Part shown: positions 3,156-37,684 of the stretch, one piece after another | How positions within the stretch are numbered: the stretch's first letter is position 1 | How the letters are laid out: every line of letters begins with the position of its first letter | IMG/VR virus record: IMGVR_UViG_3300013094_000041 | DNA from: an uncultured virus (IMG/VR IMGVR_UViG_3300013094_000041) | Taxonomy: Duplodnaviria; Heunggongvirae; Uroviricota; Caudoviricetes | Strand: one strand, 5' to 3' | DNA: 64,000 nt | Made by a program: the position numbers and the translations under genes | The notes under the pieces: model-generated | Told to the model about the DNA's origin: nothing | The model's input: the letters and a program-made list of their open reading frames with translations, nothing else | Databases searched by the model: none

Positions 3156-3554
3156 GTGATTACCCTAAAACTTCCCTACCCCGCGTCAATTAACGCCTAT
3201 TGGCTCACATCAGGTAAGCGCCGCTATATATCAAAGCGCGGTATGGCCTTTAAAGCTGCAGCAGCAGAGGCATGTAGTGGGCTACCTGGATTTGGAAGTG
3301 ATCCAGTAGAAGTGTCAATCGTGTTGTATCCACGAGACAAACGGCTGCTCGACATAGACAATATCTGTAAATGTATCCTGGATTCATTACAAGGGTATCT
3401 GTACGATGATGACCAACAGGTCTGGAAATTGACCGTTGAACGCGCCGAAAAGATTAAAGGCGGAGGATGTGACGTGACCGTCAAGGAATACAGTAAGCAT
3501 GGTTCTACTGTATCCGACCGCATGGCACGTCTTGTAGAAGACTTAACCGATTAG
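3156..3554 (+). CDS. rusA: RusA-like Holliday junction resolvase
   Basis: LPYPASINAYW N-terminus, DIDN..K..LD.L catalytic motif and YDDDQQV. Confidence 0.9.
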   Translation: MITLKLPYPASINAYWLTSGKRRYISKRGMAFKAAAAEACSGLPGFGSDPVEVSIVLYPRDKRLLDIDNICKCILDSLQGYLYDDDQQVWKLTVERAEKIKGGGCDVTVKEYSKHGSTVSDRMARLVEDLTD

Positions 3555-3568
3555 GTGCGCAATGCACT

Positions 3569-3770
3569 TTCATGCGGCATGAATGCTTCAAAAAAAGTTT
3601 CCCGAACGGGAAGAATACGTAAAAAAGTGCATGAAATTTCAATAAATTTACCGATCGGGAAGTACTAGACAAACAAAAAACTGTCTAGTAACACACCATA
3701 GGTATAAAAAAAGGTTCCGTTTTGGAACCTTTAGGTACTAAATGAGCCGTATTTTTAGCGATACGGCTCA
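3569..3770. repeat. cluster of six short inverted repeats
   Basis: TTCATGC/GCATGAA, TTCCCG/CGGGAA (with a near copy at 3648), TACTAGACA/TGTCTAGTA, AAAGGTTCC/GGAACCTTT and TGAGCCGTAT/ATACGGCTCA. Confidence 0.7.
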
Positions 3771-3781
3771 GATTGTGATGC

Positions 3782-3904
3782 TTACTTCTTGCTAAAGAAA
3801 TGCTTTACGCTAGACAAGACTGAACTAACCCAAAAATCGTTAATCTGCTTGTAGTGTTCGGCCAACTGCTCTACTTTTTTGTACTGATCATCAAATGAAA
3901 ACAT
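3782..3904 (-). CDS. 40-aa amphipathic peptide (not in ORF track)
   Basis: MFSFDDQYKKVEQLAEHYKQINDFWVSSVLSSVKHFFSKK. Has an AGGAG RBS, its own promoter and a hairpin after the stop. Confidence 0.7.
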   Translation of the reverse strand: MFSFDDQYKKVEQLAEHYKQINDFWVSSVLSSVKHFFSKK

Positions 3905-3925
3905 GGTAAATCTCCTGTTAAGTTA

Positions 3926-3949
3926 TGTTGCACTGCAACAATTGTATCA
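3926..3949 (-). promoter_or_regulatory. extended -10 promoter with a palindromic operator over the start site
   Basis: Minus strand TGnTACAAT (3941-3949) immediately followed by the inverted repeat TGTTGCA-n-TGCAACA (3926-3940). Confidence 0.65.
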
Positions 3950-4169
3950 TGTATATCATCTTAGTATATACATAGGGTAAACCCTAGAACCTGGAAACGT
4001 TACCAGGTTCATTTGGGTCTTATTGATACGTATTGGTATCACCTGATACTTCTTGAGGTATACTTCGACCATACCCTCCTCTGGTATAGCTCGGTGAATT
4101 TCCTCGTTCACTTCGCGTTCGGCCCGTGAGTACACCGGGCCACTTTTTTTACACACATTTAAAAAGTTG

Positions 4170-4178
4170 TGATATAGT
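4170..4178 (+). promoter_or_regulatory. extended -10 promoter for the replication operon leader
   Basis: TGnTATAGT preceded by AT-rich sequence. Confidence 0.55.
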
Positions 4179-4196
4179 TCTTCTACAGAAGGGGAC

Positions 4197-4340
4197 TTTG
4201 GTCGGTTCTCTTATGTTACAATCACGATCGAAGCCTCATACACATGGGGTCTGTATAGTTTTCTTATGCTTGGTTGATCGGTGACAAACATAAGCGAATG
4301 ACCAAAACAGACTCCAGTTGTATGGGGCTTTTTCTTTTCT
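4197..4340 (+). promoter_or_regulatory. attenuator-like leader with mutually exclusive long pairings ending in a U-tract
   Basis: 4197-4229 is complementary to 4276-4306. 4231-4253 is complementary to 4308-4330, which is followed by TTTCTTTTCT. Confidence 0.65.
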
Positions 4341-4345
4341 GTCTC

Positions 4346-4535
4346 TTAGGTTGGCGGCTCTAACGACATCGTGGCGGCCTAAGTGATAGCGTTACCAGTA
4401 GGGAGAGGTTGAAATAGCGCATATGCCAGCGGCGAAGTTAGCACTGGTACCTCAAAAGGCTGACGGGTGCTGTGGCTCCGAAAGGCAACGGCTGAAGGCG
4501 TACCTAGGTAGGCTAGGTGCGTCCACCAAAAGGCA
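4346..4535 (+). ncRNA. candidate multi-stem structured non-coding RNA
   Basis: Stems CTTAGGTTG/CGGCCTAAG, GAGGT/ACCTC, TGCCAG/CTGGTA, CC-GAAA-GG and GGCGTACCTAG/CTAGGTGCGTC. Several G-U pairs work only on the + strand. Confidence 0.5.
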
Positions 4536-4582
4536 ACATATACGAGTTAATAGATACGAGTGTATATACGAGGAGAAGTGTA

Positions 4583-4768
4583 GTGTCGCTACGAGAAATA
4601 ATAAAAAAGCAAGCTGGGGTAATCCCCGATGCGGTAAAAGTTGGATCGGTGCAAACTAGCATCAGATGGAAAGAACGCGCAATGAACGCTCTTCGAGTCG
4701 CCAATAACCCAAAAGCAACCGATCATGAGTTGTCAATGGCCCTATCAGAACTAACGAGGCATGTATGA
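4583..4768 (+). CDS. small hypothetical protein (GTG start, MSLREIIKKQ)
   Basis: GAGGAG RBS 7 nt upstream. Stop overlaps the next ATG (ATGA). Confidence 0.6.
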   Translation: MSLREIIKKQAGVIPDAVKVGSVQTSIRWKERAMNALRVANNPKATDHELSMALSELTRHV

Positions 4769-5649
4769 AAATATCACAAATAACACTTGATAAAGGCTTG
4801 CAGATGCGGGCTTTTATGGATAAAAATACCGTTGATGATTATGCAGAAAGACTGCTTGAAGGCGACACTTTCCCGCCAGTCATTTTATTTAACGATGGTA
4901 AAAACAATTACGTTGGCGATGGCCACAATCGTATTTTTGCTCACAAGCAAGCGGGCATTGAAATCATTAACGCAGATGTACGTCCAGGAACGCGCCGCGA
5001 TGCTTTGTTCTACGCACTAAGCGCTAACGCTAGGAATGGTCAACGCCGTACTGTTGATGACAAACGCAAAGCAGTTATGACTATGCTCGATGACATGGAA
5101 TGGTCTGAAGAATCTGATCGTAACATTGCAAAGGCTTGCGTTGTATCACATGTATTCGTTTCTAAGTTGCGTAAAGCAGAGGGAAAGCAACCTGACGTCA
5201 TTAACGTTAAGGGCAATGGTACAGAATACAAGATGGCCAACCGGGCTAAGAAAGAACCTAATGAGAGTCAAGCACCAGAGACATCGGATCAAGAAGAAAA
5301 GATCTTTGAGATGGCTACTGAAATTAGATCCATGGCTGAAGAACTCGAAGCATCAGAACGCCGTATTGCCGTTGCGGCGCTGGAAGCAACACCTGAAGAG
5401 AAGAGACTTGCGTCAGTTAAGCTCGAAGAATTGGCTGCTGAGGTTAAGGCTGTCTCTGAGAATAATCGAGTTCTCAGAATCTCTCGTGACACGTATCAGA
5501 ATGAGTGCGCTGAGTTAAAGAAACAAGTAGCGTATTGTAAGAGACGTTATGAAAAAGCGGAAAAAGAAGTTGAGCTGTTGGCTAAACAGATGAAGGTTTT
5601 TAAAGACCGCGCTGAAACAGCAGAAGCACACTTGGCAATAAACGGATAG
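4765..5649 (+). CDS. ParB/Srx-like N-terminal domain protein with C-terminal coiled coil
   Basis: FPPVILF...GDGHNRIFA ParB motif, an HTH-like SDRNIAKAC segment and a heptad-rich C-terminus. Confidence 0.8.
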   Translation: MKISQITLDKGLQMRAFMDKNTVDDYAERLLEGDTFPPVILFNDGKNNYVGDGHNRIFAHKQAGIEIINADVRPGTRRDALFYALSANARNGQRRTVDDKRKAVMTMLDDMEWSEESDRNIAKACVVSHVFVSKLRKAEGKQPDVINVKGNGTEYKMANRAKKEPNESQAPETSDQEEKIFEMATEIRSMAEELEASERRIAVAALEATPEEKRLASVKLEELAAEVKAVSENNRVLRISRDTYQNECAELKKQVAYCKRRYEKAEKEVELLAKQMKVFKDRAETAEAHLAING

Positions 5650-5655
5650 TTTTAC

Positions 5656-5721
5656 GGGGGAAAGCGGGAGTTCGCTCCTTCACGACGTGAGTACCCCACC
5701 GAAGTCAGGCGGTTTCCTGAC
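5656..5721 (+). ncRNA. structured intergenic element upstream of the helicase
   Basis: GGGG-GAA...AGTA-CCCC stem, GGAG-TTCG-CTCC hairpin and GTCAGG/CCTGAC stem. Confidence 0.45.
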
Positions 5722-5736
5722 AGCATAGGAGGAAAG

Positions 5737-7218
5737 ATGTTAGAGCTGCGCGTTCATCAGCAAGAAGTTGTTGACAAGCTAAGGGATGGTTTTATAGCTG
5801 GCCACAGATGCCAACTGTTATATGCCCCTACAGGGTTCGGCAAAACTGAAGTAGCCATGTCAATCATGAAGGCTGTTTCAGAGAAATACAAAAAAACTGC
5901 AATGGTATTGGATCGTATTGTCCTGGTAGATCAAACTAGTAGACGGCTGTCTAAATATGGAATTGAACATGGCGTCATGCAATCTCAGCATTGGCGCTAT
6001 CGTCCGGATGAGCGCATTCAAATCTGCTCAGCTCAAACACTAGAAAAGCGCCAAGCATTCCCTGACATCGACTTATTGATTATTGATGAGTGCCATGTAA
6101 CCCGCAGGGGAGTCATTAAATTCATCAAGGACAACCCAAACATCAGAGTCCTAGGGCTTACTGCCACCCCATTCACTAAAGGTCTTGGTGACACCTATAC
6201 GCACGTTGTGGGCGCTACCCCAACTGGCGAACTAATAGAAAAGGGTTGGCTAGTTCCACTTAAGGTCTATGTAGCTAAAGAAATCGACATGACTGGGGCC
6301 AAAAAGATTGCTGGAGAATGGGCTGCTAGTGATGTATCTGACCGCGGCATCAAGATTGTTGGCGATGTCGTGGAAACCTGGCAGCAAAAGACTACCGAAA
6401 TCTTTGGTAAACCAGTAAAAACCATTGTATTTGCTGCTGGTGTAGAGCATGGCCGTGAGCTGGCTAAAAGATTTGCTGACTCTGGTTTTAATTTTGTATC
6501 CATTTCCTATAAGGAAGACGATGACTTTAAGAAAAGAGCAATCGAAGATTTTTCTAAGCCTGACACTAATATTCACGGCCTTATCGCCACTGATATTCTT
6601 ACTCGCGGCTTTGATGTTAGTGATGTTCTCATTGGCATATCGGCTCGCCCATTTAGTAAGTCATTTAGCTCTCATGTGCAGCAGATGGGTAGGATTATGC
6701 GCTCGCACGAAGGAAAACAATTCGGAGTTTGGTTAGACCATTCCGGTAACTTCTTGCGGTTTCGTCAAGACTGGGATCAGGTCTTCTATGAAGGTGTCAC
6801 AGAGCTTAAGAGTGGTGGCGAGAAGGCAAAGAAAGAACCTACTGAGCGACTTAAAAAAGAAGCAGTATGCCCTAAGTGCAAAATATTATGGACGTTTAAG
6901 AGCAATATCTGTGGAGCGTGTGGTTTTGCGAAAGTAGTTAGCACCGGAGTAACTGCTTTAAATGGTGAATTAACAGAGCTTTTTGCGGCCAACCAAAAGC
7001 TTTCGATAGACAACAAGCAGTTCTATGCCGAGCTGTTGTACTACAGCAAGACTAAAGGCTACAAGGATGGCTGGGCATCCCACAAATACAAAGAAAAGTA
7101 TGGGGTTTTCCCTAGGGCCATACCGAATGCGATAGCACCACCATCACCACAAACAATCAAATGGATTAAAAGCCGAATGATTGCTTATTCAAAATCAAAG
7201 GAGAGATTAGCAGCATGA
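5737..7218 (+). CDS. superfamily 2 DExH helicase with C-terminal zinc finger
   Basis: APTGFGKT, IIDECH, GLTATP, LTRGFD and QQMGRIMR motifs, plus CPKC..CGAC. Confidence 0.93.
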   Translation: MLELRVHQQEVVDKLRDGFIAGHRCQLLYAPTGFGKTEVAMSIMKAVSEKYKKTAMVLDRIVLVDQTSRRLSKYGIEHGVMQSQHWRYRPDERIQICSAQTLEKRQAFPDIDLLIIDECHVTRRGVIKFIKDNPNIRVLGLTATPFTKGLGDTYTHVVGATPTGELIEKGWLVPLKVYVAKEIDMTGAKKIAGEWAASDVSDRGIKIVGDVVETWQQKTTEIFGKPVKTIVFAAGVEHGRELAKRFADSGFNFVSISYKEDDDFKKRAIEDFSKPDTNIHGLIATDILTRGFDVSDVLIGISARPFSKSFSSHVQQMGRIMRSHEGKQFGVWLDHSGNFLRFRQDWDQVFYEGVTELKSGGEKAKKEPTERLKKEAVCPKCKILWTFKSNICGACGFAKVVSTGVTALNGELTELFAANQKLSIDNKQFYAELLYYSKTKGYKDGWASHKYKEKYGVFPRAIPNAIAPPSPQTIKWIKSRMIAYSKSKERLAA

Positions 7219-7409
7219 AAAGAATAAAAGAAAGTCTAATGAACAATACAATGAAATATGAAGATTTTAATATGACCCAACAAGAGGTTGCTGATAGGCT
7301 TGGTATGAGCCGCGCCCATGTTGGATCAGTTGAAATTCGTGCCAAAGAAAAGGTACGCAAAGAGCTGGAGAAGCGTGGCTTTAGGCTGGAGGACTTGCTA
7401 TGGCGATAA
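7215..7409 (+). CDS. sigma70 region-4-like HTH protein
   Basis: MTQQEVADRLGMSRAHVGSVEIRAKEKVR. Confidence 0.75.
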   Translation: MKRIKESLMNNTMKYEDFNMTQQEVADRLGMSRAHVGSVEIRAKEKVRKELEKRGFRLEDLLWR

Positions 7410-7567
7410 GAGATGGCGGTAAAGGTTCTACGCCACGCCCGTTAGTCATACCAAAGGAAAAGTTTGATATGAACTGGAACGAAATTTTTGGAGGCAAAAA
7501 GTTTGAATCTGATAAATGGGACTTTGATGAAAAGACCTCAACATTGACCCCAAAGGAAAAGAAATGA
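7400..7567 (+). CDS. small hypothetical protein (DGGKGSTPRP motif)
   Basis: Manual translation. GGAGG RBS, coupled to the next ORF. Confidence 0.55.
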   Translation: MAIRDGGKGSTPRPLVIPKEKFDMNWNEIFGGKKFESDKWDFDEKTSTLTPKEKK

Positions 7568-7683
7568 GCTTCACGATATATCAATCGAATGGACTTAGGG
7601 TGATCCAATGGTTCAAGACGGTAGACGAACTAATAGCCAGCATGATAGCCAATCCGCATGATGCTTATCATAGGAATAACTAA
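7564..7683 (+). CDS. 39-aa hypothetical protein
   Basis: MSFTIYQSNGLRVIQWFKTVDELIASMIANPHDAYHRNN. Fills the gap exactly between coupled genes. Confidence 0.5.
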   Translation: MSFTIYQSNGLRVIQWFKTVDELIASMIANPHDAYHRNN

Positions 7684-8661
7684 GTGAACTATCTATCTGT
7701 ATGTTCTGGCGTAGAGGCAGCTACTGTCGCCTGGCATGACCTTGGTTTTAATCCAGTGGCATTTTCAGAGATTGAGAAATTTCCATCGGATGTATTAAAG
7801 CATCATTACCCTCACGTCCCTAACATGGGAGACATGACTAAATATAAAGAATGGAATCTAAATGAATCAATTGACCTTTTGGTCGGAGGAACCCCATGCC
7901 AATCCTTCTCAGTCGCTGGCCTTCGCAAAGGACTTGAAGACTCAAGAGGGAACCTTGCCCTTACCTATGTTGGAATTCTTGACAAGTTTAGACCCAAGTG
8001 GTGCGTATGGGAAAACGTGCCAGGTGTCCTCAGTTCTAATGGAGGACGGGATCTTGGTTCCTTCCTTGGGGCGCTGGTCGAACTCGGCTATGGGTTTTCA
8101 TATAGGGTGCTTGACGCTGTCCACTTCGGAACACCACAGCGCAGGCGTAGAGTCTTCGTTGTTGGATGTCTTGGAAACTGGGAGTCTCCCGCAAAAGTTT
8201 TATTTGAGTCCGAGAGCTTGCGCAGGGATACTCCGCAGAGCAGAGAAAAGAAAAAAGAAACTCCCGGAATCACTACAAACCGCCTTGTTGCTTTTGGCGA
8301 ATACTCTACAGACGGAACGGCCAGCACCATAAAGGCAAGAGATTACAAGGATGCTACAGACTTAATCGTCATTGACCGTGCAGCATTTAATCAAGGTGAG
8401 AATGCTTTGTATGAACCGTACATAGAATCTACCGAGACGATGCCAACATTGATCTCAAGAGGGCCTCATGCAGTCTTCCATAGGATGGCAGTTCGCCGCC
8501 TCACCCCAATTGAATGCGAGCGTCTTCAAGGATTTCCCGATGATTACACAAACATTAAAGAGAAGTGTCCCGATGGCGCACGATATAAAGCAATGGGCAA
8601 TAGCATGGCAGTCCCAGTTATGCGCTGGATTGGTAAAAGAATAATGGAGAATAACGTATGA
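7684..8661 (+). CDS. DNA (cytosine-5)-methyltransferase
   Basis: Motif I variant (SVCSGVEA), GGTPCQSFS catalytic motif, WENVPG, PQRRRRVF, RRLTPIECERLQGFP and YKAMGNS. Confidence 0.93.
   Translation: MNYLSVCSGVEAATVAWHDLGFNPVAFSEIEKFPSDVLKHHYPHVPNMGDMTKYKEWNLNESIDLLVGGTPCQSFSVAGLRKGLEDSRGNLALTYVGILDKFRPKWCVWENVPGVLSSNGGRDLGSFLGALVELGYGFSYRVLDAVHFGTPQRRRRVFVVGCLGNWESPAKVLFESESLRRDTPQSREKKKETPGITTNRLVAFGEYSTDGTASTIKARDYKDATDLIVIDRAAFNQGENALYEPYIESTETMPTLISRGPHAVFHRMAVRRLTPIECERLQGFPDDYTNIKEKCPDGARYKAMGNSMAVPVMRWIGKRIMENNV
7862..8332 (+). CDS. nested alternative-frame ORF resembling the beta polypeptide of M.EcoHK31I-type methyltransferases
   Basis: 156 codons open in another frame inside the MTase gene, ending SSLLDVLETGSLPQKFYLSPRACAGILRRAEKRKKKLP. 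Confidence 0.6.
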   Translation: MNQLTFWSEEPHANPSQSLAFAKDLKTQEGTLPLPMLEFLTSLDPSGAYGKTCQVSSVLMEDGILVPSLGRWSNSAMGFHIGCLTLSTSEHHSAGVESSLLDVLETGSLPQKFYLSPRACAGILRRAEKRKKKLPESLQTALLLLANTLQTERPAP

Positions 8662-9443
8662 GTTTTGTACAATTCGCTGAGCAGCATGGTTTGATCATTG
8701 ATCATGTGTTACTAGACAGATGGGTGCGTTGTCCTACAACAGACAAACCCAATAAACGCAATGGTTCATACATATTTGATGGCCGACAGGGCGCGGTTAA
8801 GAACTGGGCGGTGCATGAGAAGGCTATTCCATTTTTTGATGATGATCCTAGAGTTCAGTTGGTTACTCGTCGTGCGCCAGTAGAGGATAAGACGATTGAG
8901 CGCCGCAAGAAGGCCGCCAATAAAGCAGCCTGGATACTGACTCAGCCCGTTAAGTCTACACACCCGTACCTGGCCAACAAAGGATTTCCTGACATTAAAG
9001 GTTATGTATGGAACAAGTTGCTTGTCATTCCCATGCGTGTTGGCGATGGCCTGGTTGGCTGCCAGCTCATTGATCCTGATGGTAATAAGCGTTTTTTATC
9101 CGGCCAAAGAACCAAAGGTGCGTCCTTTTGTTTCGATAATAAGGGTCCAATCATCTTATGCGAGGGATTTGCGACCGCTCTTTCAATTCGCCGCGTACTC
9201 AAGATGGCAAGAAGGCGCTATACGCTGCACGTTTGTTTCTCTGCTAGCAATATTGTTGAGGTAGCCAAACAATTTCCGGAATGTTTTATCGTAGCGGACA
9301 ATGATCCTATGGGTATTCGCATGGCCAAGAAGACCGGCCAACCTTACTGGATTTCACCAGTAGATGGAGAAGACTTTAACGACTTCGAGCTTCGTGCTAC
9401 ACCCAATGAAGCGCTTGAATCATTGAAGGCGTTCAGAAGGTGA
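8658..9443 (+). CDS. Toprim-domain DNA primase
   Basis: HPYL..KG, Q.I..DG.KRFL.G, CEGFATALS, IVADND and DFND Toprim motifs. Confidence 0.85.
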   Translation: MSFVQFAEQHGLIIDHVLLDRWVRCPTTDKPNKRNGSYIFDGRQGAVKNWAVHEKAIPFFDDDPRVQLVTRRAPVEDKTIERRKKAANKAAWILTQPVKSTHPYLANKGFPDIKGYVWNKLLVIPMRVGDGLVGCQLIDPDGNKRFLSGQRTKGASFCFDNKGPIILCEGFATALSIRRVLKMARRRYTLHVCFSASNIVEVAKQFPECFIVADNDPMGIRMAKKTGQPYWISPVDGEDFNDFELRATPNEALESLKAFRR

Positions 9444-11500: not shown

Positions 11501-12214
11501 TTAGGCGGCTTCCATCATAAATACGCGGGCTGCTTTTTTGGCTTGCGTACCATGCGCCGGAAAACCTATGATCACCTCGCGGCTGCTAATTGCGCACAAT
11601 TTGCAGGTGGCGCAGCTTATCCCCTCGCGAATGGCTGCCGGGCATACTACAATTTTCCGGCCGCCTGGCGTTACGGTGTTTTCCTTTTGATCAATAGGTA
11701 ATACGGTCACAACTGGGCCAAGGTTAAGCGCTGCCAAGTCGTCGGCGTGTTCCGGCGTGTTAGCGCTTAGGTTTACAGTAAAACCCCAAGTATTGCAGCC
11801 CTTAATATAGGCGGCATTATTGCCCTGGCGCGGGTTGTAGTGGGTATAAGTAAAGCCCCGGCGGCCTATATTGGCCTTAACCAGGTCTCCAAGTGCTGCG
11901 CCGTCAAGCTCTAGGCCGTCCCCTGGAAGGTCGCCCGCTTGATTATGTCGCCACAATTGGCCCGGTGGTAGTGCTGCGATTTTGTCGCAAAAATCCGCGA
12001 AGCAATCGCCCCTATCGCCGCGGGTAACGGCGTCCCAGTGTAATTTGAGCGGCCCGGAACCGGCATAGCAGCCTTGGTCGTTATTAAATGGGCAATCCGG
12101 CGGGCAAGTCGCCGCGCTTGTGGTACTTACTGGAATGGGCCCGGTTTTCTCATTGGCGCTCTTAGGTGTTAAGTGAAAGCGCAGCCCCGCCGCTATTTTG
12201 GTTTTATTGTGCAT
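11501..12214 (-). CDS. Cys-rich putative Fe-S protein (phage gp88-like / radical-SAM-like)
   Basis: N.KTG...TCPPDCPF..GCYA, RHNQAGD, FTYTH, FTVNLSA and CPA...CATCKLCA...FPAHG. Confidence 0.6.
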   Translation of the reverse strand: MHNKTKIAAGLRFHLTPKSANEKTGPIPVSTTSAATCPPDCPFNNDQGCYAGSGPLKLHWDAVTRGDRGDCFADFCDKIAALPPGQLWRHNQAGDLPGDGLELDGAALGDLVKANIGRRGFTYTHYNPRQGNNAAYIKGCNTWGFTVNLSANTPEHADDLAALNLGPVVTVLPIDQKENTVTPGGRKIVVCPAAIREGISCATCKLCAISSREVIIGFPAHGTQAKKAARVFMMEAA

Positions 12215-27183: not shown

Positions 27184-27878
27184 TGGATTACAACACTCTT
27201 TTTGCTCAAATACAGACGTACACGGAAAACATATTTCCGGATACGTACTTAGCTAATGGAAGTACGGTCTCTTATACAGATCAAATAAATACTTTCATTC
27301 AGCAAGCGGAAGAGCGCATCTATAATACGGTGCAGATTCCTTCTTTGCGTAAAAACGTTACTGGTACATGTACATCGAGCAATCAGTATCTGGCTTGCCC
27401 TAACGACTACTTATCTACCTACTCTTTGGCGGTTATTGACCCAACTACGGGTGAATATGAATACTTGCTTAATAAAGATGTTAACTACATTCGTCAGGCG
27501 TATCCAAGCCCAAACGCTACTGGTAAGCCAAGATACTATGCTTTGTTTGGGTCTCGTTTAAATGATCCTAACAACCTTACTTTCATTCTGGGACCAACCC
27601 CTGATTATAGTTACTCGGCGGAGCTGCACTACTTCTATTACCCTGAGTCCATCGTTACTGCCGGCACCTCATGGCTTGGTGATAATTATTCACCAGCATT
27701 GTTATATGGATCCCTTGTAGAGGCATACGCCGTCTACATGAAGGGTGAGCCAGATATGGTTAACATCTACCTTAAACGATATGAAGAAGCGCTCCAACAA
27801 CTTAACAGACTTGGAACTGGCCTTGAGCGTGGTGATAGCTATCGTGATGGTCAAGCTAAAATTAAGGTAAATCCATAA
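27183..27878 (+). CDS. tail adaptor/tubular-like structural protein
   Basis: FIQQAEERI, GKPRYYA, LGPTPD and LLYGSLVEAY. Confidence 0.65.
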   Translation: MDYNTLFAQIQTYTENIFPDTYLANGSTVSYTDQINTFIQQAEERIYNTVQIPSLRKNVTGTCTSSNQYLACPNDYLSTYSLAVIDPTTGEYEYLLNKDVNYIRQAYPSPNATGKPRYYALFGSRLNDPNNLTFILGPTPDYSYSAELHYFYYPESIVTAGTSWLGDNYSPALLYGSLVEAYAVYMKGEPDMVNIYLKRYEEALQQLNRLGTGLERGDSYRDGQAKIKVNP

Positions 27879-28636
27879 TGCAAGGGATTGTTTACCTAGC
27901 AACCAATAAAGCCAATGGTAAGCAGTACGTTGGTTTAACAAAACGGTCTTTAGATGCTCGTTGGCGTCAGCACGTTAATGTAGCTAATCAAGGTGCAAAG
28001 ACATATTTCCATCGTGCAATTGTTAAACACGGTGTAGCTGGGTTTGATGTTCAGCCTATGGTTTCGGCGTTGTCACTAGACTATCTAGCCGACTTAGAGC
28101 GTTTAATGATTTCTGAGATAAAGCCAGAATACAACCAAACCAATGGCGGTGAAGTTACTTTTGGTAGAAAATACAATGACGCTACTAAAGAACAAATTAG
28201 GCTAAAAAATACAGGCAAAAAACGTAGCCCAGAAGTTTGTAAAAAGTTGTCTGACATGGTTAAACAACGCTATATTGACCGCCCAGAACTAAAAGAAGCC
28301 GCAACAAAACAAATACTTGCGGCTCGTTCTAGCGTTGATGAAGAAAAGCGCAAAAAAGCCGCAGCAGAAGCAGCTAAAAACCAGCCTTGGACAGCGGAAT
28401 CAAGAGCTAAATTAAGCGCATCTTGCATGGGTCGAAGGTATAATAGCGAAATTATTGAAAAGATTGCGTCAAAAAACCGCAAAATTGTTCAATGTTCAGA
28501 TGGTAGAATTTTTTCGTGTAGAGCAGAAGCGGCTAAAGAAACAGGTATTAGCAAAGAGTCTATATGGAGAGTATGTAACGGTAAGTACCCGTCCGTTAAA
28601 GGGTTAACATTTAATTATTTAGGAGTGCATCCATGA
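27878..28636 (+). mobile_element. free-standing GIY-YIG homing endonuclease with NUMOD-type DNA-binding repeats
   Basis: GIVY..TN..NGKQYVG.T...RWRQH, PEYN and a C-terminal F.CRAEAAK.TG HTH. Confidence 0.85.
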
Positions 28637-29066: not shown

Positions 29067-29645
29067 ATGTTTTTGGAGGCAACACATTTTGCTAGTTACA
29101 CAGCGGATGTTGTGGGTGTTGTCGCAACTAAGATTTGTGGTAAGTGCAAAGAAGAAAAAGCAGTATCTTTGTTTTCTTTAAGTAAGTGCAATAAAAGTGG
29201 TTTTAATTTTTATTGTAAAAGTTGTGACAGCACCATTGGCAAAGAAAGAACACTTAAAGAGACTTTAAGGGATAAAGTAATTCCATTTGCTAAAGAATGC
29301 CCTACATGTAAAACAACAAAGACTTCTACTGAATTTAATAAATGTGTATCTAGAAAAGATGGGCTAGACATTAGGTGCAAATCTTGCGCAAGCCAATCAA
29401 GCAAAATACAGCACTACAAAAAACATTATGGTTTTACTACAGAGCAAGCAAAGCTGCATTTACAAAATCAGTATGGCAATTGCAAAATTTGTAGCAAAGA
29501 AACAAAGTTATATGTTGACCATAATCATGCAACTGGAAAAGTTCGTGATTTAATATGTAATAACTGCAATACAGTAATCGGACATGCAAAAGAAAGTATT
29601 GATGTGCTAGAAAAAACAATTAAGTACCTTAAGGAGCATTCATAA
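29067..29645 (+). mobile_element. free-standing endonuclease VII-family (His-Me) homing endonuclease
   Basis: Two KxCxxC...CKSC zinc-finger repeats and CKIC...VDHNHATGKVRDLICNNCN. Confidence 0.82.
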
Positions 29646-32103: not shown

Positions 32104-33066
32104 ATGCCTGTAATTATTGGTGGAACATCGGGTGTAACCCCAGCACAATGGACTACTGGCGGTAGACCTGGATCTCCTACTGTCGGTCAGCAAGGATGGA
32201 ATACAACTCTTTCTCAGTACGAAATTTGGAATGGAGTTTCATGGTTTGCTCCAGCCGGAGTTACTTACACTATTAATTATTTACTAGTTGCTGGTGGCGG
32301 TGGTGGCGGTTATGGAGGTGGTGGATCAGGGGCTGGTGGCGGTGGCGGCGGTCTTACAACCGGTTCTTCTGCATCAGTATCTACTGGTTACTCATACACC
32401 ATTACAGTTGGTTCTGGTGGAGCTGGTGGTACTGGAACAAGCGCTCCTGGTACCAATGGTGGAAATTCATCAATCAGTGGATTTACTGCGGCTATTGGCG
32501 GTGGTGGAGGCGGCTATGGCGGTGGAACTGCTGGTAGTGGTGCTTCAGGTGGTTCAGGTGGCGGTGCTGGTGGCGGTTCATCAGTAGGTAGTGCTGGTTC
32601 AGGAACTTCAGGCCAAGGAAATAATGGTGGTGCTGCTTATGGCACAAGTAGTCCTTATGTTGGAGGTGGCGGTGGCGGTGCTGGTGCTGCTGGACAACAA
32701 GGTCAAAGCGGAAATGCGGGTAACGGTGGCAATGGAACTGCTAATTCCCTTTCTGGTGCTTCAGTAACTTATGCTGGAGGTGGCGGCGCTGCATCAAGAA
32801 CCGATGTTGCGGTAACTGCTGGTATTGGTGGTACAGGTGGCGGTGCAAACTCATCTCCAACAGCTGGTGGTGCTGCTGGTAATGGCGGAACAAACCTTGG
32901 AGGTGGCGGTGGTGGCGCAAACGGAAACACAACTGGCGGTGCTGGTGGGTCAGGAATTGTCATTATTAGCTATGCTGGAACACAAAAAGGAACTGGCGGA
33001 ACTGTTACTTCCGTTGGTGGCAACACTATCCACACGTTTACATCAAGCGGCACCTATACAGCGTAA
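32104..33066 (+). CDS. glycine-rich tail fibre protein
   Basis: YLLVAGGGGGG...GGSGIVIISY...HTFTSSGT domain. Confidence 0.75.
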   Translation: MPVIIGGTSGVTPAQWTTGGRPGSPTVGQQGWNTTLSQYEIWNGVSWFAPAGVTYTINYLLVAGGGGGGYGGGGSGAGGGGGGLTTGSSASVSTGYSYTITVGSGGAGGTGTSAPGTNGGNSSISGFTAAIGGGGGGYGGGTAGSGASGGSGGGAGGGSSVGSAGSGTSGQGNNGGAAYGTSSPYVGGGGGGAGAAGQQGQSGNAGNGGNGTANSLSGASVTYAGGGGAASRTDVAVTAGIGGTGGGANSSPTAGGAAGNGGTNLGGGGGGANGNTTGGAGGSGIVIISYAGTQKGTGGTVTSVGGNTIHTFTSSGTYTA

Positions 33067-33069
33067 TGT

Positions 33070-34152
33070 ATGCCAAGCACCATAAATGTCATTCCAGACC
33101 CAATATCAGGACAGCTTCGTAAAAAAGGAGCTGCTGATGCTAATCTTACGATTCAAACAAACAGCATTAACGCAGTAGTAATAGACAACGCCCAGAACGC
33201 AAACTTCGTTTCTACTGGCGCAACAACAATTCCTCGTGGTACAACGGCACAAAGACCTGCAAGCCCAATAAATGGGATGATTAGATATAACACTAGCTAT
33301 AGTTTACTTGAAGGATATATTAATGGCGCTTGGACTGCTGTTACTGGGGCTTACACATATACTGCTACTTATCTAGCTACTGGCGGTGGCGGTGGTGGCG
33401 GAACAAGTCGAGGTGGTGGCGGTGGCGGTGGTGGTGTTTTATCAAATACAGCCACATTAACTATTGGAACTGTTTACACAATTACTGTAGGTGCTGGCGG
33501 AAATTATGGATCTAGCTATGCTGTTCCATCAACCAATGGTGGAAATTCATCCATTGCAAATTCTGGTGTAATAGTTAACGCATTGGGTGGTGGTGCTGGT
33601 GCAAACGATGGTGGAACTGCTGGTAACGGTGGTTCAGGTGGCGGAGGCGGAACTGCTGGTACAGGTACTTCTGGTCAAGGATATAACGGTGGTAGTGGTA
33701 CAGGGTCTGCTTCTGCGTACGCTGCTGGTGGCGGAGGCGGTGCTGGGTCTGCTGGATCTAGTTTTTCTGGTCAAACTGCTGGTAATGGAGGAAATGGATT
33801 TACTTCTACCATTACTGGATCTTCCATAAATTATGGCGGTGGAGGTGGGGGTGGGTGCAATGGATCAGGAACTGCTGGCTCAGGCGGAACAGGTGGTGGT
33901 GGAGCTGGTTCTGCAGTACTAAATACTGGAAACGGAACCTCTGGAACTGTAAATTACGGGGGTGGCGGTGGTGGAGGCTCAAACTGGTCTGGATCTGCTG
34001 GATTTGGTGGCTCAGGTGGATCTGGAATTGTGATTCTTTCTATACCTACATCTAGCTTTTCAAACACCTATACTGGATCAAATACTGTAGTGACAACCAG
34101 CGGCTCTAATAAGATAATTACATTTAACGCATCTGGGACATACACAGCATGA
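33070..34152 (+). CDS. glycine-rich tail fibre protein
   Basis: GTTAQRP..NGMIRYN module plus a Gly-rich domain. Confidence 0.75.
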   Translation: MPSTINVIPDPISGQLRKKGAADANLTIQTNSINAVVIDNAQNANFVSTGATTIPRGTTAQRPASPINGMIRYNTSYSLLEGYINGAWTAVTGAYTYTATYLATGGGGGGGTSRGGGGGGGGVLSNTATLTIGTVYTITVGAGGNYGSSYAVPSTNGGNSSIANSGVIVNALGGGAGANDGGTAGNGGSGGGGGTAGTGTSGQGYNGGSGTGSASAYAAGGGGGAGSAGSSFSGQTAGNGGNGFTSTITGSSINYGGGGGGGCNGSGTAGSGGTGGGGAGSAVLNTGNGTSGTVNYGGGGGGGSNWSGSAGFGGSGGSGIVILSIPTSSFSNTYTGSNTVVTTSGSNKIITFNASGTYTA

Positions 34153-35183
34153 CAACAATCATAAACGCCAACTCAACGGGCTTAGTTGAAACAGTAGATA
34201 CTTCTGGGATATTAGAATTTCAGACAGCTAATACTACTGCCGTAATTATCGGTACAGACCAAAACGCTAACTTTGCATCTACTGGCGCAATTACACTTCC
34301 TGTAGGAACAACAGCACAACGCCCTACTGGTGTTAATGGAATGATGCGGTACAACAGTACTTTTAATACACCAGAAGCGTATTTGGCTGGAAATTGGACG
34401 GCTTTTGGAGGAAACTATTCTTACTCTGCTTCTTATTTATTGGTAGCGGGTGGTGGTGGAGGTGGTGGTGGATATGAAGGCGCTGGAGGTGGAGCTGGTG
34501 GGTTACTTGCAAATACCACTACGCTAGTTGTTGGAACAACATACTCTTTTACTGTCGGTGGCGGCGGCGCTCAAGGTGGGGGTAGTGGTTCTAATTCCAC
34601 GGCTTTTAGCTTAACCGCTATCGGTGGTGGTTATGGAGCTGCCGAAAGCTCCCCTTCAAACCCAGGAGCAGGTGGTTCAGGAGGAGGTGCCTGTTGGGGT
34701 GGCGGGGCAACTACTGGCGGTGCTGGAACTAGCGGTCAGGGCTATAAAGGCGGTGATGTTGCTGGTATTACTGGAGCTGGCGGCGGCGGTGCAGGGCAGG
34801 TAGGGTTTAATGGCGGCGGTGCTGGTGGTAATGGCGTTACATCAACAATCACTGGGTCTGCTATTTATTACGCTGGCGGTGGTGGGGGCTCTGTTAGAAG
34901 CGGAAGCGGGGGCAACGGTGGTTTAGGCGGAGGCGGTAATGCTGCGCAAGGCGGTGCAACTGCTGGAACTGCTGGAACTGCTTACTTAGGTGGTGGCGGT
35001 GGTGGTGGGCAGGGGAATGGTGGAACTGGTGGTGTTGGTGGAGCTGGCGGTTCTGGGGTGGTTATTATTTCTATTCCAACATCTCTGTTTTCTAATTCGT
35101 ACACAGGCTCAAATGTTGTTGTAACAACATCTGGTTCAAATACGGTTGTTAAATTCTCTGCTTCTGGTACTTACACAGCCTAA
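34149..35183 (+). CDS. glycine-rich tail fibre protein
   Basis: Paralogue of the preceding gene (QNANF.STGA...GTTAQRP). Confidence 0.75.
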   Translation: MTTIINANSTGLVETVDTSGILEFQTANTTAVIIGTDQNANFASTGAITLPVGTTAQRPTGVNGMMRYNSTFNTPEAYLAGNWTAFGGNYSYSASYLLVAGGGGGGGGYEGAGGGAGGLLANTTTLVVGTTYSFTVGGGGAQGGGSGSNSTAFSLTAIGGGYGAAESSPSNPGAGGSGGGACWGGGATTGGAGTSGQGYKGGDVAGITGAGGGGAGQVGFNGGGAGGNGVTSTITGSAIYYAGGGGGSVRSGSGGNGGLGGGGNAAQGGATAGTAGTAYLGGGGGGGQGNGGTGGVGGAGGSGVVIISIPTSLFSNSYTGSNVVVTTSGSNTVVKFSASGTYTA

Positions 35184-35185
35184 TT

Positions 35186-36289
35186 ATGTTCTTTGGATTC
35201 GGACCATTCGCTTCTACACCGTTTGCTGATGCAGGCGGAGTTTCGTCTACCGATGTTCAAGTATCAGTTACTGGCGTACAGGCGGTTGGTTATTTAGGCA
35301 CCGCATCCGTAACAGGCGCAGCTAATGCCGTTGTTACAGGCGTTGTTGGGATTGGTCAAACAGGTACTGCTACTGTAGCTGCTAGTGCAAATGTTTCTGT
35401 TACTGGAGTTCAGGCAGTAGGTCAGATTGGTACAGTTTTAGCAACTGCTGGCACTAACGTATATCTAACAGGCGTACAAGCCGTAGGCTATCTTGGAACA
35501 GCAAGCGTCACAGGCACAGCCAATATATCTGTAACAGGTACTCAAGCAATAGGTTATGTAGGTACTGTTTCTACAGCCGCTGGTGTAGGTGTACTGGTTA
35601 CTGGAGTTCAGGCTATTGGGTATTTGGGTACATCCTCCGTAACAGGCACTGCTAACGTTTCTGTAACAGGCGTTCAAGGCATTGGTCAGACAGGTACTGT
35701 AACGGTAGCTGCTGGTGCTTTTGTTCCTGTAACAGGCGTTCAAGCGGTAGGTAAAGTTGGAACTGCAACGGTAGCGGCTAATGCAAATGTCAGCGTAACA
35801 GGAGTTGTTGGTGTAACCCAACTTGGAACCGCATCTGTAACTGCAGGTGCTAATGTAACCACAACAGGCGTACAAGGTGTTGGTAAGGTTGGCACAGTAT
35901 CAGTAGCTGCCAATGCAAACGTATACCTTACAGGCGTTCAAGGCAACACGCAATTAGGCACTGCTTCTGTAACTGGAACTGCTAACGTATCCGTAACAGG
36001 AGTTCAAGCCCCAGTACAACTGGGTACTGTATTTATCCAATTAAGTCAAAATGTAAGAGTTACTGGTGTTCAAGCCGTAGGCTATGTAGGTACTGCAAAT
36101 GTTAAAGCTGATGCAACAATCTACTTAACAGGAGTGCAAGCAAGGGGTATAATCGGACAAGTATTAGTCTGGGGTCAAATACCAGACAATTCTAGCCCTA
36201 ACTGGACAAGTCTTGATGATTCTGGTGGATCTGGCTGGAACCAAATTAACGATAACATAACCCCAAATTGGGATTTAATAGCGGCCTAA
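35186..36289 (+). CDS. virion protein with 22-aa tandem repeats
   Basis: 13 full and 1 partial units with consensus VTGVQAVGYLGTASVTGTANVS. Confidence 0.75.
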   Translation: MFFGFGPFASTPFADAGGVSSTDVQVSVTGVQAVGYLGTASVTGAANAVVTGVVGIGQTGTATVAASANVSVTGVQAVGQIGTVLATAGTNVYLTGVQAVGYLGTASVTGTANISVTGTQAIGYVGTVSTAAGVGVLVTGVQAIGYLGTSSVTGTANVSVTGVQGIGQTGTVTVAAGAFVPVTGVQAVGKVGTATVAANANVSVTGVVGVTQLGTASVTAGANVTTTGVQGVGKVGTVSVAANANVYLTGVQGNTQLGTASVTGTANVSVTGVQAPVQLGTVFIQLSQNVRVTGVQAVGYVGTANVKADATIYLTGVQARGIIGQVLVWGQIPDNSSPNWTSLDDSGGSGWNQINDNITPNWDLIAA

Positions 36290-36290
36290 T

Positions 36291-37676: not shown

Positions 37677-37684
37677 GAAACAAC

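Follow-up and report, generated by a model that had tools for sequence, protein, structure and literature searches.

An RF02932 phage RNA with a triply pseudoknotted core, an uncatalogued 70-nt tail, and a duplicated phage-specific word

RNase P excises the C4 RNA of phages P1 and P7 from its operon transcript, and this RNA contains a CCA-like element; in the C4 and CI antisense RNAs of P1, P7, and P4, the loops are complementary to flanking phage-specific direct repeats. For plasmid RNA II, Masukata and Tomizawa reportedly showed in 1990 that an upstream loop of the RNA base-pairs with template DNA close to the origin. During ColE1 priming, as outlined in PMC4555960, RNA II stays hybridised at the origin, where it is cut by RNase H and extended by polymerase I. 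The Rfam family RF02932 ("Betaproteobacteria-1 RNA"; type, "Gene; sRNA") stems from the 224-motif survey of Weinberg et al. (2017; PMC5737381). The main text of that survey does not carry the motif's name, and literature searches by family name or Rfam identifier found no paper about the RNA.

The DNA analysed here (the window) is the whole 64,000-nt stretch of the uncultured phage IMGVR_UViG_3300013094_000041, the source of which is lake-water metagenomes. A novel structured noncoding RNA had been predicted at positions 4346 to 4535. Comparison with Rfam by cmscan identified a match to RF02932 at 4344-4468 (+) with a score of 71.4 bits (gathering score, 49.4) and E values of 8.2e-13 in a 1.4-kb search and 3.8e-11 in the whole 64-kb window. 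The match covers the covariance model end to end (positions 1 to 120 of 120, not truncated). Thus, the RNA is not novel as a family, and that part of the original prediction, which had itself named an Rfam match as grounds for losing novelty, has to be given up. The family is already catalogued, as an orphan motif, and this RNA is one more member. The element itself is confirmed at the site by the covariance model and by covariation, with slightly wider borders (4344-4537, +). We conclude, with a probability above 0.95, that it is an ~195-nt phage RNA of RF02932 consisting of the catalogued 125-nt core, which is triply pseudoknotted, and an uncatalogued 70-nt tail (P4, UGAAGG, P5, and CACCA).

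The window RNA shares helices P1 to P3, the conserved junction letters, and the phage setting (terminase, capsid, ERF, RusA, and primase genes are present in the window) with RF02932. It differs from the Rfam entry in that conservation runs ~70 nt past the model, through the tail and its duplicated word to an end near position 4537, and in that three covariation-backed pseudoknots are missing from the Rfam structure line. What is absent from the catalogue is the length of ~195 nt rather than 120, the triple knot, the phage-specific word that is present twice, and the company of replication genes. The core comprises the following elements.

4344..4468, + strand, core domain, full-length RF02932 match (cmscan)
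4345..4383, + strand, P1 helix (4345-4353 with 4375-4383) and its loop (Rfam consensus structure)
4371..4398, + strand, pseudoknot c, P1 loop 4371-4374 with P2 loop 4395-4398 (covariation)
4389..4420, + strand, P2 helix (4389-4394 with 4415-4420), its loop containing conserved GGG and UGAAA (Rfam consensus)
4405..4453, + strand, pseudoknot b, P2 loop 4405-4409 with P3 loop 4449-4453 (covariation)
4425..4448, + strand, pseudoknot a, 4425-4429 with 4444-4448 inside the P3 loop (covariation)
4431..4437, + strand, invariant GGCGAAG junction (alignment; upper case in the Rfam consensus)
4437..4464, + strand, P3 helix (4437-4442 with 4459-4464) (covariation)

Covariation was tested by counting pairs of the named structure (10 helices) in a structure-blind MAFFT alignment of 46 relatives. 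Across the 10 helices, 73.1% of the cells were paired, compared with 61.0% in shuffles, none of which (0/500) reached the observed value; sliding the partners reduced pairing to 31 to 44%. Compensatory changes were found in 36 of 51 pairs, and the G-U pairs were strand specific. The helices and the three pseudoknots thus covary among the 46 relatives, and the element is real and structured. The G-U pairs of the original prediction are found on the + strand in P2, P3, P4, and P5.

Among the individual helices, P3 had 97.5% of its cells paired in the MAFFT alignment and pseudoknot a 93.5%, the latter with both-side changes in 5/5 pairs. Both-side changes were also seen in five of the six P2 pairs in the MAFFT alignment and in all five pairs of pseudoknot b (63.2% of cells paired in the MAFFT alignment), as well as in six of the eight pairs of P1, a helix poorly aligned by MAFFT (55.9% of cells paired). 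For pseudoknot c, the corresponding values were 73.9% and 2/4 pairs, and only three of its four pairs are standard in the window itself. The purine-rich junction GGCGAAG is invariant in 73/73 aligned relatives, a count obtained by construction because this string belonged to the search pattern. Energy-based folding of 4346-4535 alone gave no advantage over shuffled sequence (z scores of +0.29 for the + strand and +0.52 for the - strand), so that the structure is supported by covariation and not by folding energy. The region had also been described as free of RBS-supported ORFs. Two mechanical ORFs do overlap it (4423-4659 and 4517-4768), but its conservation takes the form of base-pair compensation and is not codon-like.

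The tail and the two copies of the word are arranged as follows.

4469..4492, + strand, P4 hairpin (4469-4473 with 4488-4492), its loop formed by GGCUCC and then word copy 1 (covariation)
4478..4489, + strand, DR1, word copy 1, CCGAAAGGCAAC, in the P4 loop (repeat search)
4493..4498, + strand, conserved UGAAGG joint between P4 and P5 (alignment)
4497..4523, + strand, P5 hairpin (4497-4507 with 4513-4523), with conserved GGCUAGGU (single-sequence fold)
4524..4528, + strand, conserved CACCA directly 3' of P5 (alignment)
4526..4537, + strand, DR2, word copy 2, CCAAAAGGCAAC, at the 3' edge of conservation (repeat search)

Per-sequence pairing counts gave 221 of 244 P4 cells paired, with 30 distinct 5' strands; the two strands pair at 0.91 within the same sequence and at 0.57 across different sequences, and both-side changes occur in 5/5 pairs of the MAFFT alignment. 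The AAGG of the joint is invariant in 73/73 sequences, GGCU.GGU is also conserved in the tail, and CACC is invariant in all 46 main-class sequences. In the P5 outer helix, 74.9% of the cells are paired and four of the eight pairs show both-side changes, while the P5 register, also relative to CACCA, is variable between relatives. RNAalifold, run on the tail, recovered neither P4 nor P5 but invariant pairs only, because of alignment gaps.

The two copies of the 12-nt word are in direct orientation, have 11 of 12 letters in common (92%), and are spaced by 48 nt; in the aligned relatives, conservation ends after DR2. Among 73 representatives, the best 10-nt window matched the locus's own second copy at 8.0/10 positions, compared with 6.95/10 for the copies of other loci, and for the 8-nt core the values were 5.7/8 and 2.99/8 (56 distinct pairs). 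Both copies vary in concert from phage to phage, and near-identical RNA cores carry different words, as in the window and locus L061. The word is also duplicated in the variant class and in the cultured phage AP1, and it is rich in purines (73%). The GAAA at 4480-4483, which had been taken for a tetraloop, is no conserved tetraloop but part of this variable loop word, which changes from one relative to another.

No complement of the word was found within the RNA itself, in the flanking sequence, or anywhere in the 64-kb window, and no 8/8 complement occurred at a consistent place between -400 and +500 in 50 representatives. In the core, between the copies, and in the 150 nt downstream, the maximum complement length was equal for a locus's own word and for the words of other loci. 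Since the copies change in concert and no complementary RNA was identified, the template DNA strand at copy 2 would be the one partner that is complementary in every phage. If RNA paired with the complement of copy 2, mismatches between the copies should be of the wobble type. The pattern is not a clean fit: 12 run in the expected direction, 4 in the opposite one, and 18 are transversions.

In IMG/VR, the sequence pattern matched 111 contigs. When the GenBank phages were searched by blastn with window positions 4300-4600, no match was obtained, and with two relatives as queries, only MW202545.1 and Acidovorax phage AP1 were found. AP1 (OM049504.1, ~11856-12060) contains an unannotated member of which the core scores 93.4 bits. 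It has the same core, duplicated-word tail, and ParB-like/helicase/primase module as the window, whereas its P4 loop is a variant with an inner hairpin in place of GGCUCC, and its RNA follows the primase gene instead of preceding the module. Genome matches that reached the Rfam threshold or aligned well were mostly from Burkholderiales. Prophage-carrying isolates of Variovorax and Comamonas were among the genomes hit by the pattern. Pattern matches in Spirochaetes, Acidobacteriota, Verrucomicrobia, Actinobacteria, Chloroflexi, and Alphaproteobacteria are considered chance, because the 13 tested all fell below the Rfam threshold. Four RNA-library runs from four studies contain contigs with close or distant relatives of 4325-4537 and little flanking sequence; these contigs are silent on transcription, ends, and strand, DNA carry-over is possible, and the gap in flanking sequence proves nothing.

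Homing endonuclease genes adjoin the RNA in five relatives. An intron reading based on these genes was rejected, as no intron model matched and the upstream primase genes are complete; since the latter are full length and comparable to the stand-alone primase of the window, the RNA splits no gene. The original prediction had likewise found no fit by eye to group I/II introns, RNase P, tmRNA, or small ribozymes, and neither Rfam nor ARAGORN gave such a match at the element. The sole ribozyme match, RAGATH-6, scored 19.5 bits (gathering score, 170) and lies elsewhere, at 3921-4013.

The immediate surroundings of the RNA in the window are listed below.

4312..4337, + strand, terminator-like hairpin and T run just 5' of the RNA (consensus scan)
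4538..4582, + strand, AT-rich, purine-rich spacer (sequence, repeat search)
4540-4546, 4554-4560, and 4566-4572, + strand, three copies of ATACGAG (repeat search)
4570-4575, + strand, ribosome-binding site GAGGAG (sequence)
4583..4768, + strand, first ORF 3' of the RNA, 61 amino acids, GTG start, without a family hit (Pfam/PHROGs)
4765..9443, + strand, replication module of ParB-like protein, SF2 helicase, HTH protein, C5 methylase, and Toprim primase (Pfam, PHROGs)
4765-5649, + strand, ParB-like gene (Pfam, PHROGs)
5737-7218, + strand, SF2 helicase gene (Pfam, PHROGs)
7684-8661, + strand, C5 methylase gene (Pfam, PHROGs)
8658-9443, + strand, Toprim primase gene (Pfam, PHROGs)

The Pfam and PHROGs assignments agree with the ParB-like, helicase, methyltransferase, and primase genes named beforehand, and none of the 84 ORFs scanned against Pfam gave a hit to an initiator or DNA polymerase family, as had also been noted. 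The proposed tie between a structured + strand RNA and replication genes is supported as well. Among 96 related loci whose upstream flank is 2.5 kb or longer, 30 have a ParB-like/helicase/Toprim primase module that ends right at the RNA; the order is reversed, with the module 3' of the RNA, in three loci and the window; and of 21 other loci, 7 have a DnaB-type helicase no more than 3 kb away. With the queries used, about 60 of the 96 loci showed no homologue of a helicase or primase within 3 kb. The RNA is located inside same-strand early operons, in many relatives directly after the Toprim primase gene or ahead of helicase genes, and it often lies where replication genes border on NinB, NinG, or RusA-type genes. 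Occurring either after the primase or ahead of the module, the RNA resembles a site-like element more than the leader of a single gene. In many loci, the RNA begins 4 to 13 nt after the upstream stop codon, and the following start codon is mostly 10 to 80 nt beyond the RNA. Based on this gene spacing, the RNA is probably transcribed as part of a same-strand early operon rather than as a separate gene with a promoter and a terminator. Comparable T runs precede the RNA in several relatives.

No shared downstream partner protein was identified, the 150 ORFs examined falling into 104 clusters; homologues of the 61-amino-acid ORF were present in only two other loci, and the loci of the RNA differ in neighbouring genes and in replication modules. 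In the relatives, the 60 nt after DR2 have a GC content of 0.386, a purine content of 0.60, and a GC skew of +0.24, compared with 0.549, 0.536, and 0.068 upstream of other ORFs, a contrast in AT richness that is overstated because this control takes in coding sequence. Iteron-like repeats after copy 2 were found in 7 of 43 loci and in 3 of 43 controls and are therefore not general. The GC-skew minimum of the window coincides with the switch of gene direction, and phage AP1 has a weak minimum ~2 kb upstream of the RNA; the former is confounded by gene direction and the latter is weak and offset, so GC skew provides no independent origin signal.

As the preferred mechanism, though at low confidence, we suggest a locus-addressed RNA that could re-pair with its own template DNA and serve as an R-loop anchor. 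The P4 loop would display an 8- to 13-nt word whose second copy lies in the DNA directly downstream of the RNA, and behind the polymerase, this loop word would pair with the template strand at copy 2. The transcript could then be held on the DNA as an R-loop beside the AT-rich, purine-rich stretch, which would open the DNA or give a primer for the neighbouring helicase and primase, while the conserved knotted core might be a handle for a host factor. In favour of this are the duplicated word and the lack of an RNA partner for it, the link to replication genes, the composition of the DNA after copy 2, the purine richness of the word, and the lack of a shared neighbouring protein. The likeness to ColE1 RNA II is circumstantial and confined to logic: an upstream loop repeats a downstream stretch (4478-4489 equals 4526-4537 at 11 of 12 positions) and could pair with the template there, a possible pairing only. 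The two RNAs show no sequence or structural relation and are not of the same family, the phage element lies inside an operon rather than at a plasmid origin, and no antisense regulator is known for it. The hybrid, the RNase H cut, and priming are ColE1 features. Several points speak against an R-loop anchor. Besides the mismatch pattern of the copies, the limited spread of iteron-like repeats, the uninformative GC skew, the overstated AT contrast, and the ~60 loci mentioned above, the triply knotted conserved core exceeds what R-loop seeding needs and suggests binding to a conserved machine (RNA polymerase, ribosome, or nuclease). In addition, nascent copy-2 RNA is already complementary to the template, so that it is not obvious why a second copy would be required.

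The same arrangement might instead be operon punctuation, that is, an intercistronic processing and stability module, a reading given the same low confidence as the R-loop anchor. P5 with CACCA would then resemble an acceptor-type minihelix of tRNA and be a possible substrate for RNase P or for tRNA-like end trimming. After the cut, the upstream message would be shielded from 3' exonucleases by the knotted core and P4, and the downstream message would be capped by P5; the loop word might be a decoy for a factor that binds where the downstream message begins, and so adjust how that message is translated or decays. The location between same-strand ORFs with tight stop and start spacing, which makes a separate promoter or terminator unnecessary, is consistent with this, as are the 11- to 12-bp hairpin followed by conserved CACCA and the position of copy 2 within the untranslated stretch ahead of the next gene. 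The C4 RNA of P1 and P7 would be a precedent by analogy: both are small phage RNAs, the window RNA being a candidate for excision from its own operon transcript, with phage-specific direct repeats and a CCA-like element beside a helix. However, the window RNA lacks a segment complementary to the repeats, and Rfam models for C4, tRNA, and tmRNA gave no match at 3600-5000 at E values of up to 10. ARAGORN predicted 0 tRNA or tmRNA genes in the window and no model of the Rfam tRNA clan matched, leaving a hairpin and CACCA as the tRNA-like features, and the P5 register relative to CACCA is variable. Punctuation also leaves the duplicated word without a reader, because a word that is different in each phage cannot be recognised by a host protein and no adjoining phage protein is shared.

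Somewhat more doubtful is a trans-acting small RNA or protein sponge, in which the processed RNA would act on host or phage targets. Both word copies would act as seeds directed at one and the same target RNA, and a host protein, such as a defence or RNA-decay factor, would be bound or sequestered by the knotted core. The Rfam typing as an sRNA points this way, the unrelated neighbours and different replication modules suit an autonomous module that uses host machinery, both copies are in positions expected to be single stranded (a hairpin loop and the 3' tail), and relatives of exactly this stretch are present in the contigs of the four RNA libraries, where DNA carry-over is possible. Unlike most bacterial trans-acting RNAs, however, the RNA has no terminator hairpin and U tail, and the 64-kb phage window has no complementary target; the strictly fixed placement of copy 2, right behind CACCA at the outermost limit of conservation, looks like a cis arrangement.

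It is unlikely that the RNA modifies the polymerase like the put RNAs of phage HK022, with the nascent fold binding RNA polymerase and conferring terminator resistance and read-through from the replication genes into a downstream region of nin-like genes and late regulators. In lambdoid phages, terminators are located at the border of replication genes and nin-type genes, and the RNA has an early-operon site that is often at such a border (NinB, NinG, or RusA-type genes); its complex conserved fold suggests a conserved host partner. Yet the terminator-like hairpin is upstream and not downstream of the RNA in the window and several relatives, the duplicated word is left without a role, and Rfam shows no similarity to a known antiterminator RNA. 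That the element acts as DNA only, offering a phage protein binding sites or iterons while its transcript has no function, is very improbable: direct repeats are typical of iterons, replication genes are nearby, and three ATACGAG copies lie 3' of the element in the window, but the strand-specific G-U pairs, the compensatory changes in 36 of 51 pairs, the covariance-model match, and the lack of an adjoining protein shared across loci all argue against it.

Pairing of the loop word with the template DNA, as in the R-loop anchor, could also be taken further, although we regard this extension as improbable: a processed knotted RNA might be a sequence-addressed replication initiator that finds its own DNA via the loop word and recruits the helicase and primase. 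The word would pair with the template strand of copy 2 much as initiator proteins find iterons, and its fast concerted change between RNAs that are otherwise nearly identical would be a specificity switch that keeps co-infecting relatives off each other's origins. If this were true, an RNA would replace the origin-binding protein in phages without a recognisable initiator gene. More generally, if the word proves to guide the RNA to its own DNA, viruses would have a previously unseen means of marking a genomic site. The size, the triple knot, the duplicated word, and the company of replication genes turn an orphan motif into a testable object, and with the cultured Acidovorax phage AP1 as a carrier, the RNA is open to experiment.

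A small minus-strand ORF (3782-3904) and the plus-strand ORF that opens a replication operon are 680 bases apart, and the segment at 4346-4535 falls within this gap. When all 4227 Rfam families were scanned against 3600-5000, the sole strong match was RF02932, "Betaproteobacteria-1 RNA" (4344-4468, plus strand; model positions 1-120 of 120; 71.4 bits; curated gathering threshold, 49.4; E = 8.2e-13), which was also the only match across the 64-kb window at Rfam's own thresholds. The RNA shows all the testable defining features of RF02932 and is a member of that family. Its identity is settled, and it is not a new class, contrary to the novelty suggested in the original prediction. The 190 nt alone did not fold more stably than shuffled sequence (z, +0.29 and +0.52 for the two strands); therefore, the stems drawn from the single sequence are not evidence in themselves, and the claim of a structured RNA holds through the Rfam match and covariation. 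ARAGORN found no tRNA or tmRNA gene in the window, and a tRNA-like identity was rejected on the negative ARAGORN and Rfam detectors, as was an intron or known ribozyme on the Rfam scan; the earlier failure to match introns, RNase P, tmRNA, or small ribozymes by eye was thus borne out. A literature search by family name and accession, with the supplement of the discovery paper outside its coverage, found no paper treating RF02932.

Relatives were sought with a pattern built from letters conserved in the 3' portion of the Rfam alignment, which matched 111 viral contigs (IMG/VR) and 35 stretches of bacterial genomes. Sufficient flank was available for 105 of the 111 viral loci, which were clustered at 90% identity to 73 representatives. 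The genome matches that were above the Rfam threshold or well aligned were mostly from Burkholderiales; none of the 13 matches checked from other phyla reached the threshold, and these were therefore counted as chance. Near one chance match, in a Rothia genome bin (L124, 3140-3355), lies a lysM-Actino RNA (RF03090, 183 bits) unrelated to the RF02932 RNA. One carrier is a cultured phage, Acidovorax phage AP1 (OM049504.1), whose copy (93.4 bits) is unannotated. This copy lies at 5950-6160 of locus L147 (about 11856-12066 of OM049504.1), inside the 293-base gap that separates the primase gene from the gene 3' of it. The annotation of the 63-aa ORF 3' of this copy, "glycoside hydrolase family protein," looks like an error.

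When the 73 representatives are aligned, conserved sequence extends ~70 nt beyond the end of the Rfam model. This tail contains two hairpins, P4 and P5, and a phage-specific direct repeat, here called the word.

Features of the tail in the window
4469-4473 with 4488-4492, plus strand: hairpin P4, its loop opening with GGCUCC in the main class
4478-4489, plus strand: word copy 1, CCGAAAGGCAAC, in the P4 loop
4493-4498, plus strand: joint UGAAGG, with AAGG invariant
4497-4507 with 4513-4523, plus strand: hairpin P5, including GGCUAGGU
4524-4528, plus strand: conserved CACCA
4526-4537, plus strand: word copy 2, CCAAAAGGCAAC, after CACCA and 48 nt from copy 1

P4 is well supported: 221 of 244 cells were paired in 47 main-class sequences with 30 distinct 5' strands, and pairing was 0.91 for a sequence's own strands versus 0.57 for strands mixed between sequences. 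The full structure was specified on the window row as three pseudoknots plus five nested helices, and its pairs were then counted in 46 main-class sequences aligned by MAFFT without regard to structure. In total, 73.1% of the cells were paired versus 61.0% in shuffles (0 of 500 reached the observed value), the proportion was 31 to 44% when partners were slid by one to three columns, and 36 of the 51 pairs had both-sided changes. Pairing was highest (82 to 98%) in P3, P4, and pseudoknot a (4425-4429 with 4444-4448); the core helices P1 and P2 reached only 52 to 56%, because MAFFT aligns these variable-length helices poorly.

The word occurs twice in direct orientation, in the P4 loop and right after CACCA, and varies between phages, while the two copies within one phage agree. 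Over the best 10-nt window, the 73 representatives averaged 8.0 of 10 identities between own copies versus 6.95 between a loop and the tail of another phage, the latter value being inflated by shared consensus letters. For the eight variable letters anchored on the conserved CC, compared without threshold or shift, own identity was 5.7 of 8 versus 2.99 of 8 across phages (56 distinct pairs). Differences between copies almost never fall on the middle three letters, and past ~8 to 9 letters the repeat fades. The window and a related locus (L061) have near-identical RNA cores and different words in both copies. The variant class, to which phage AP1 belongs, also has the duplicated word, with an inner hairpin replacing GGCUCC. 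A third copy was seen in another locus (L052), about 20 to 30 nt past copy 2.

Whatever reads two identical words that vary in concert has to vary with them. In 50 representatives, no complement of the word (8 of 8 letters, G-U allowed) recurred at the same place between -400 and +500, and the longest complement of a phage's own word showed no excess over those of other phages' words in the core (5.29 versus 5.37), between the copies (4.73 versus 4.59), or in the next 150 nt (5.92 versus 5.78). The complement is also absent from the 64-kb window, where word matches with up to two mismatches numbered 16 versus 11.6 expected and the only exact ones were the two plus-strand copies. Membership in the C4/CI antisense family was rejected, there being no Rfam match and no own-word complementarity above the cross-locus level. 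A shared protein is unlikely as the reader, since the first downstream ORFs are so diverse (104 clusters among 150 ORFs) and the upstream genes differ too. What remains in every phage as a complement is the opposite DNA strand at its own locus, or a candidate host partner.

In the representatives, the RNA is flanked by same-strand ORFs, often with the upstream stop 4 to 13 nt before it and the next start 10 to 80 nt after it, a spacing so tight that the RNA in those loci must be transcribed with the operon. Among the 31 close upstream ORFs scanned (of 35 candidates, with 4 from 600-base loci omitted), 12 encode Toprim_3 primase-like proteins of 273 to 347 aa. The ParB-like/SF2 helicase/Toprim module was traced by tblastn with window and AP1 proteins. 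Among 96 loci whose upstream flank is 2.5 kb or longer, it immediately precedes the RNA on the same strand in 30; in 3 loci it is downstream, as in the window (the locus set is not dereplicated and includes chance genome matches). The proposed association with helicase and primase genes thus holds as adjacency, and the side of the module on which the RNA lies is not fixed. Where the module is lacking (21 loci), a gene for a primase-helicase or DnaB-type helicase lies within 3 kb in 7 loci, downstream on the same strand in 6 of these, and the remainder have recombination genes (ERF, YqaJ, PD-(D/E)XK, and RusA), DNA methylases, and repressors. Among 45 downstream ORFs scanned, 38 had no family; the rest were four homing endonucleases (HNH or GIY-YIG type), NinB, NinG, and a primase-helicase. 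This gene content places the RNA in the early DNA-metabolism region, often attached to replication genes. In loci L007, L008, L025, L056, and L068, genes for HNH, GIY-YIG, or T5orf172-type homing endonucleases adjoin the RNA gene, which suits a highly conserved DNA stretch as a homing target.

The window appears to be an almost complete phage genome: it has genes for terminase, capsid, tail, and ERF. No polymerase or known initiator family was matched among its 84 ORFs scanned, in agreement with the original prediction. Other observations in the window include (i) a plus-strand gene for a RusA-type Holliday junction resolvase (3156-3554) surrounded by minus-strand genes, after which comes a hairpin resembling a two-way terminator (3710-3732); (ii) a near-perfect, operator-like 24-bp palindrome in the divergent intergenic region (3987-4010; 12-nt arms, no spacer, 92% complementary); (iii) GIY-YIG and endonuclease VII genes (27878-28636 and 29067-29645) inserted amid structural genes, probably free-standing homing endonucleases; and (iv) six consecutive ORFs (32104-39112), five for paralogous glycine-rich-domain (Gly_rich_2) proteins and one (35186-36289) without a family match, the run probably being a tail-fibre or decoration array. 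Between a promoter-like site (4150-4178) and the RNA, long imperfect inverted repeats (4197-4337) pair 4197-4217 with 4287-4306 and 4231-4254 with 4307-4330, not all of which can form simultaneously; they terminate in a T run, resemble an attenuator with alternative folds, and are probably the "upstream switch" noted earlier.

The 60 nt past copy 2 (52 representatives) had a GC content of 0.386, a purine content of 0.60, and a GC skew of +0.24, versus 0.549, 0.536, and 0.068 in a control that partly overlaps coding sequence (the 60 nt before the starts of 220 other ORFs of these loci). By a second measure, the stretch after copy 2 was at least 5 points below locus GC in 39 of 48 loci. In the window, ATACGAG follows copy 2 three times; these copies and a fourth near-copy, spaced by 12 to 14 nt within 4540-4595 between the RNA and the first ORF, reach into the ribosome-binding site and first codons. 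Significant short repeats after copy 2 are not general (7 of 43 loci versus 3 of 43 control segments).

The phage DNA was found in lake-water metagenome runs, with at least half of the sampled words in five rows, three of which were flagged as possible sources. Relatives of 4325-4537 were present on contigs from four metatranscriptome runs of four studies, one contig piece having a single difference over 4345-4479; as RNA libraries can contain DNA, such assembled contigs give presence, not transcription, ends, or strand.

The mechanism is not settled. Ranked first, at roughly one chance in five, is that the loop word may anchor an R-loop on the template DNA at copy 2. Only this reading gives the direct repeat a partner without an extra assumption; it also fits the link of the RNA to replication genes. 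Against it, seeding an R-loop would require far less than the elaborate, conserved knotted core; iterons are not a general feature; GC skew is uninformative; and the mismatches between word copies are not cleanly wobble-like. Three rival readings account for the duplicated word no better: an operon processing and stability module, which would build on the tRNA-end-like hairpin-CACCA; an RNA that acts in trans, or sponges a protein, through two seeds; and an antiterminator that would bind the polymerase. In the ColE1 primer, an upstream loop of the RNA reportedly has a role in the mechanism. R-loop anchoring would follow the logic of that primer, the mechanism of which is described in PMC4555960. 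In the phage RNA, the P4-loop word would pair with the template DNA strand at copy 2, this pairing would anchor the transcript as an R-loop next to an easily opened stretch, and the R-loop may then serve the neighbouring helicase and primase.
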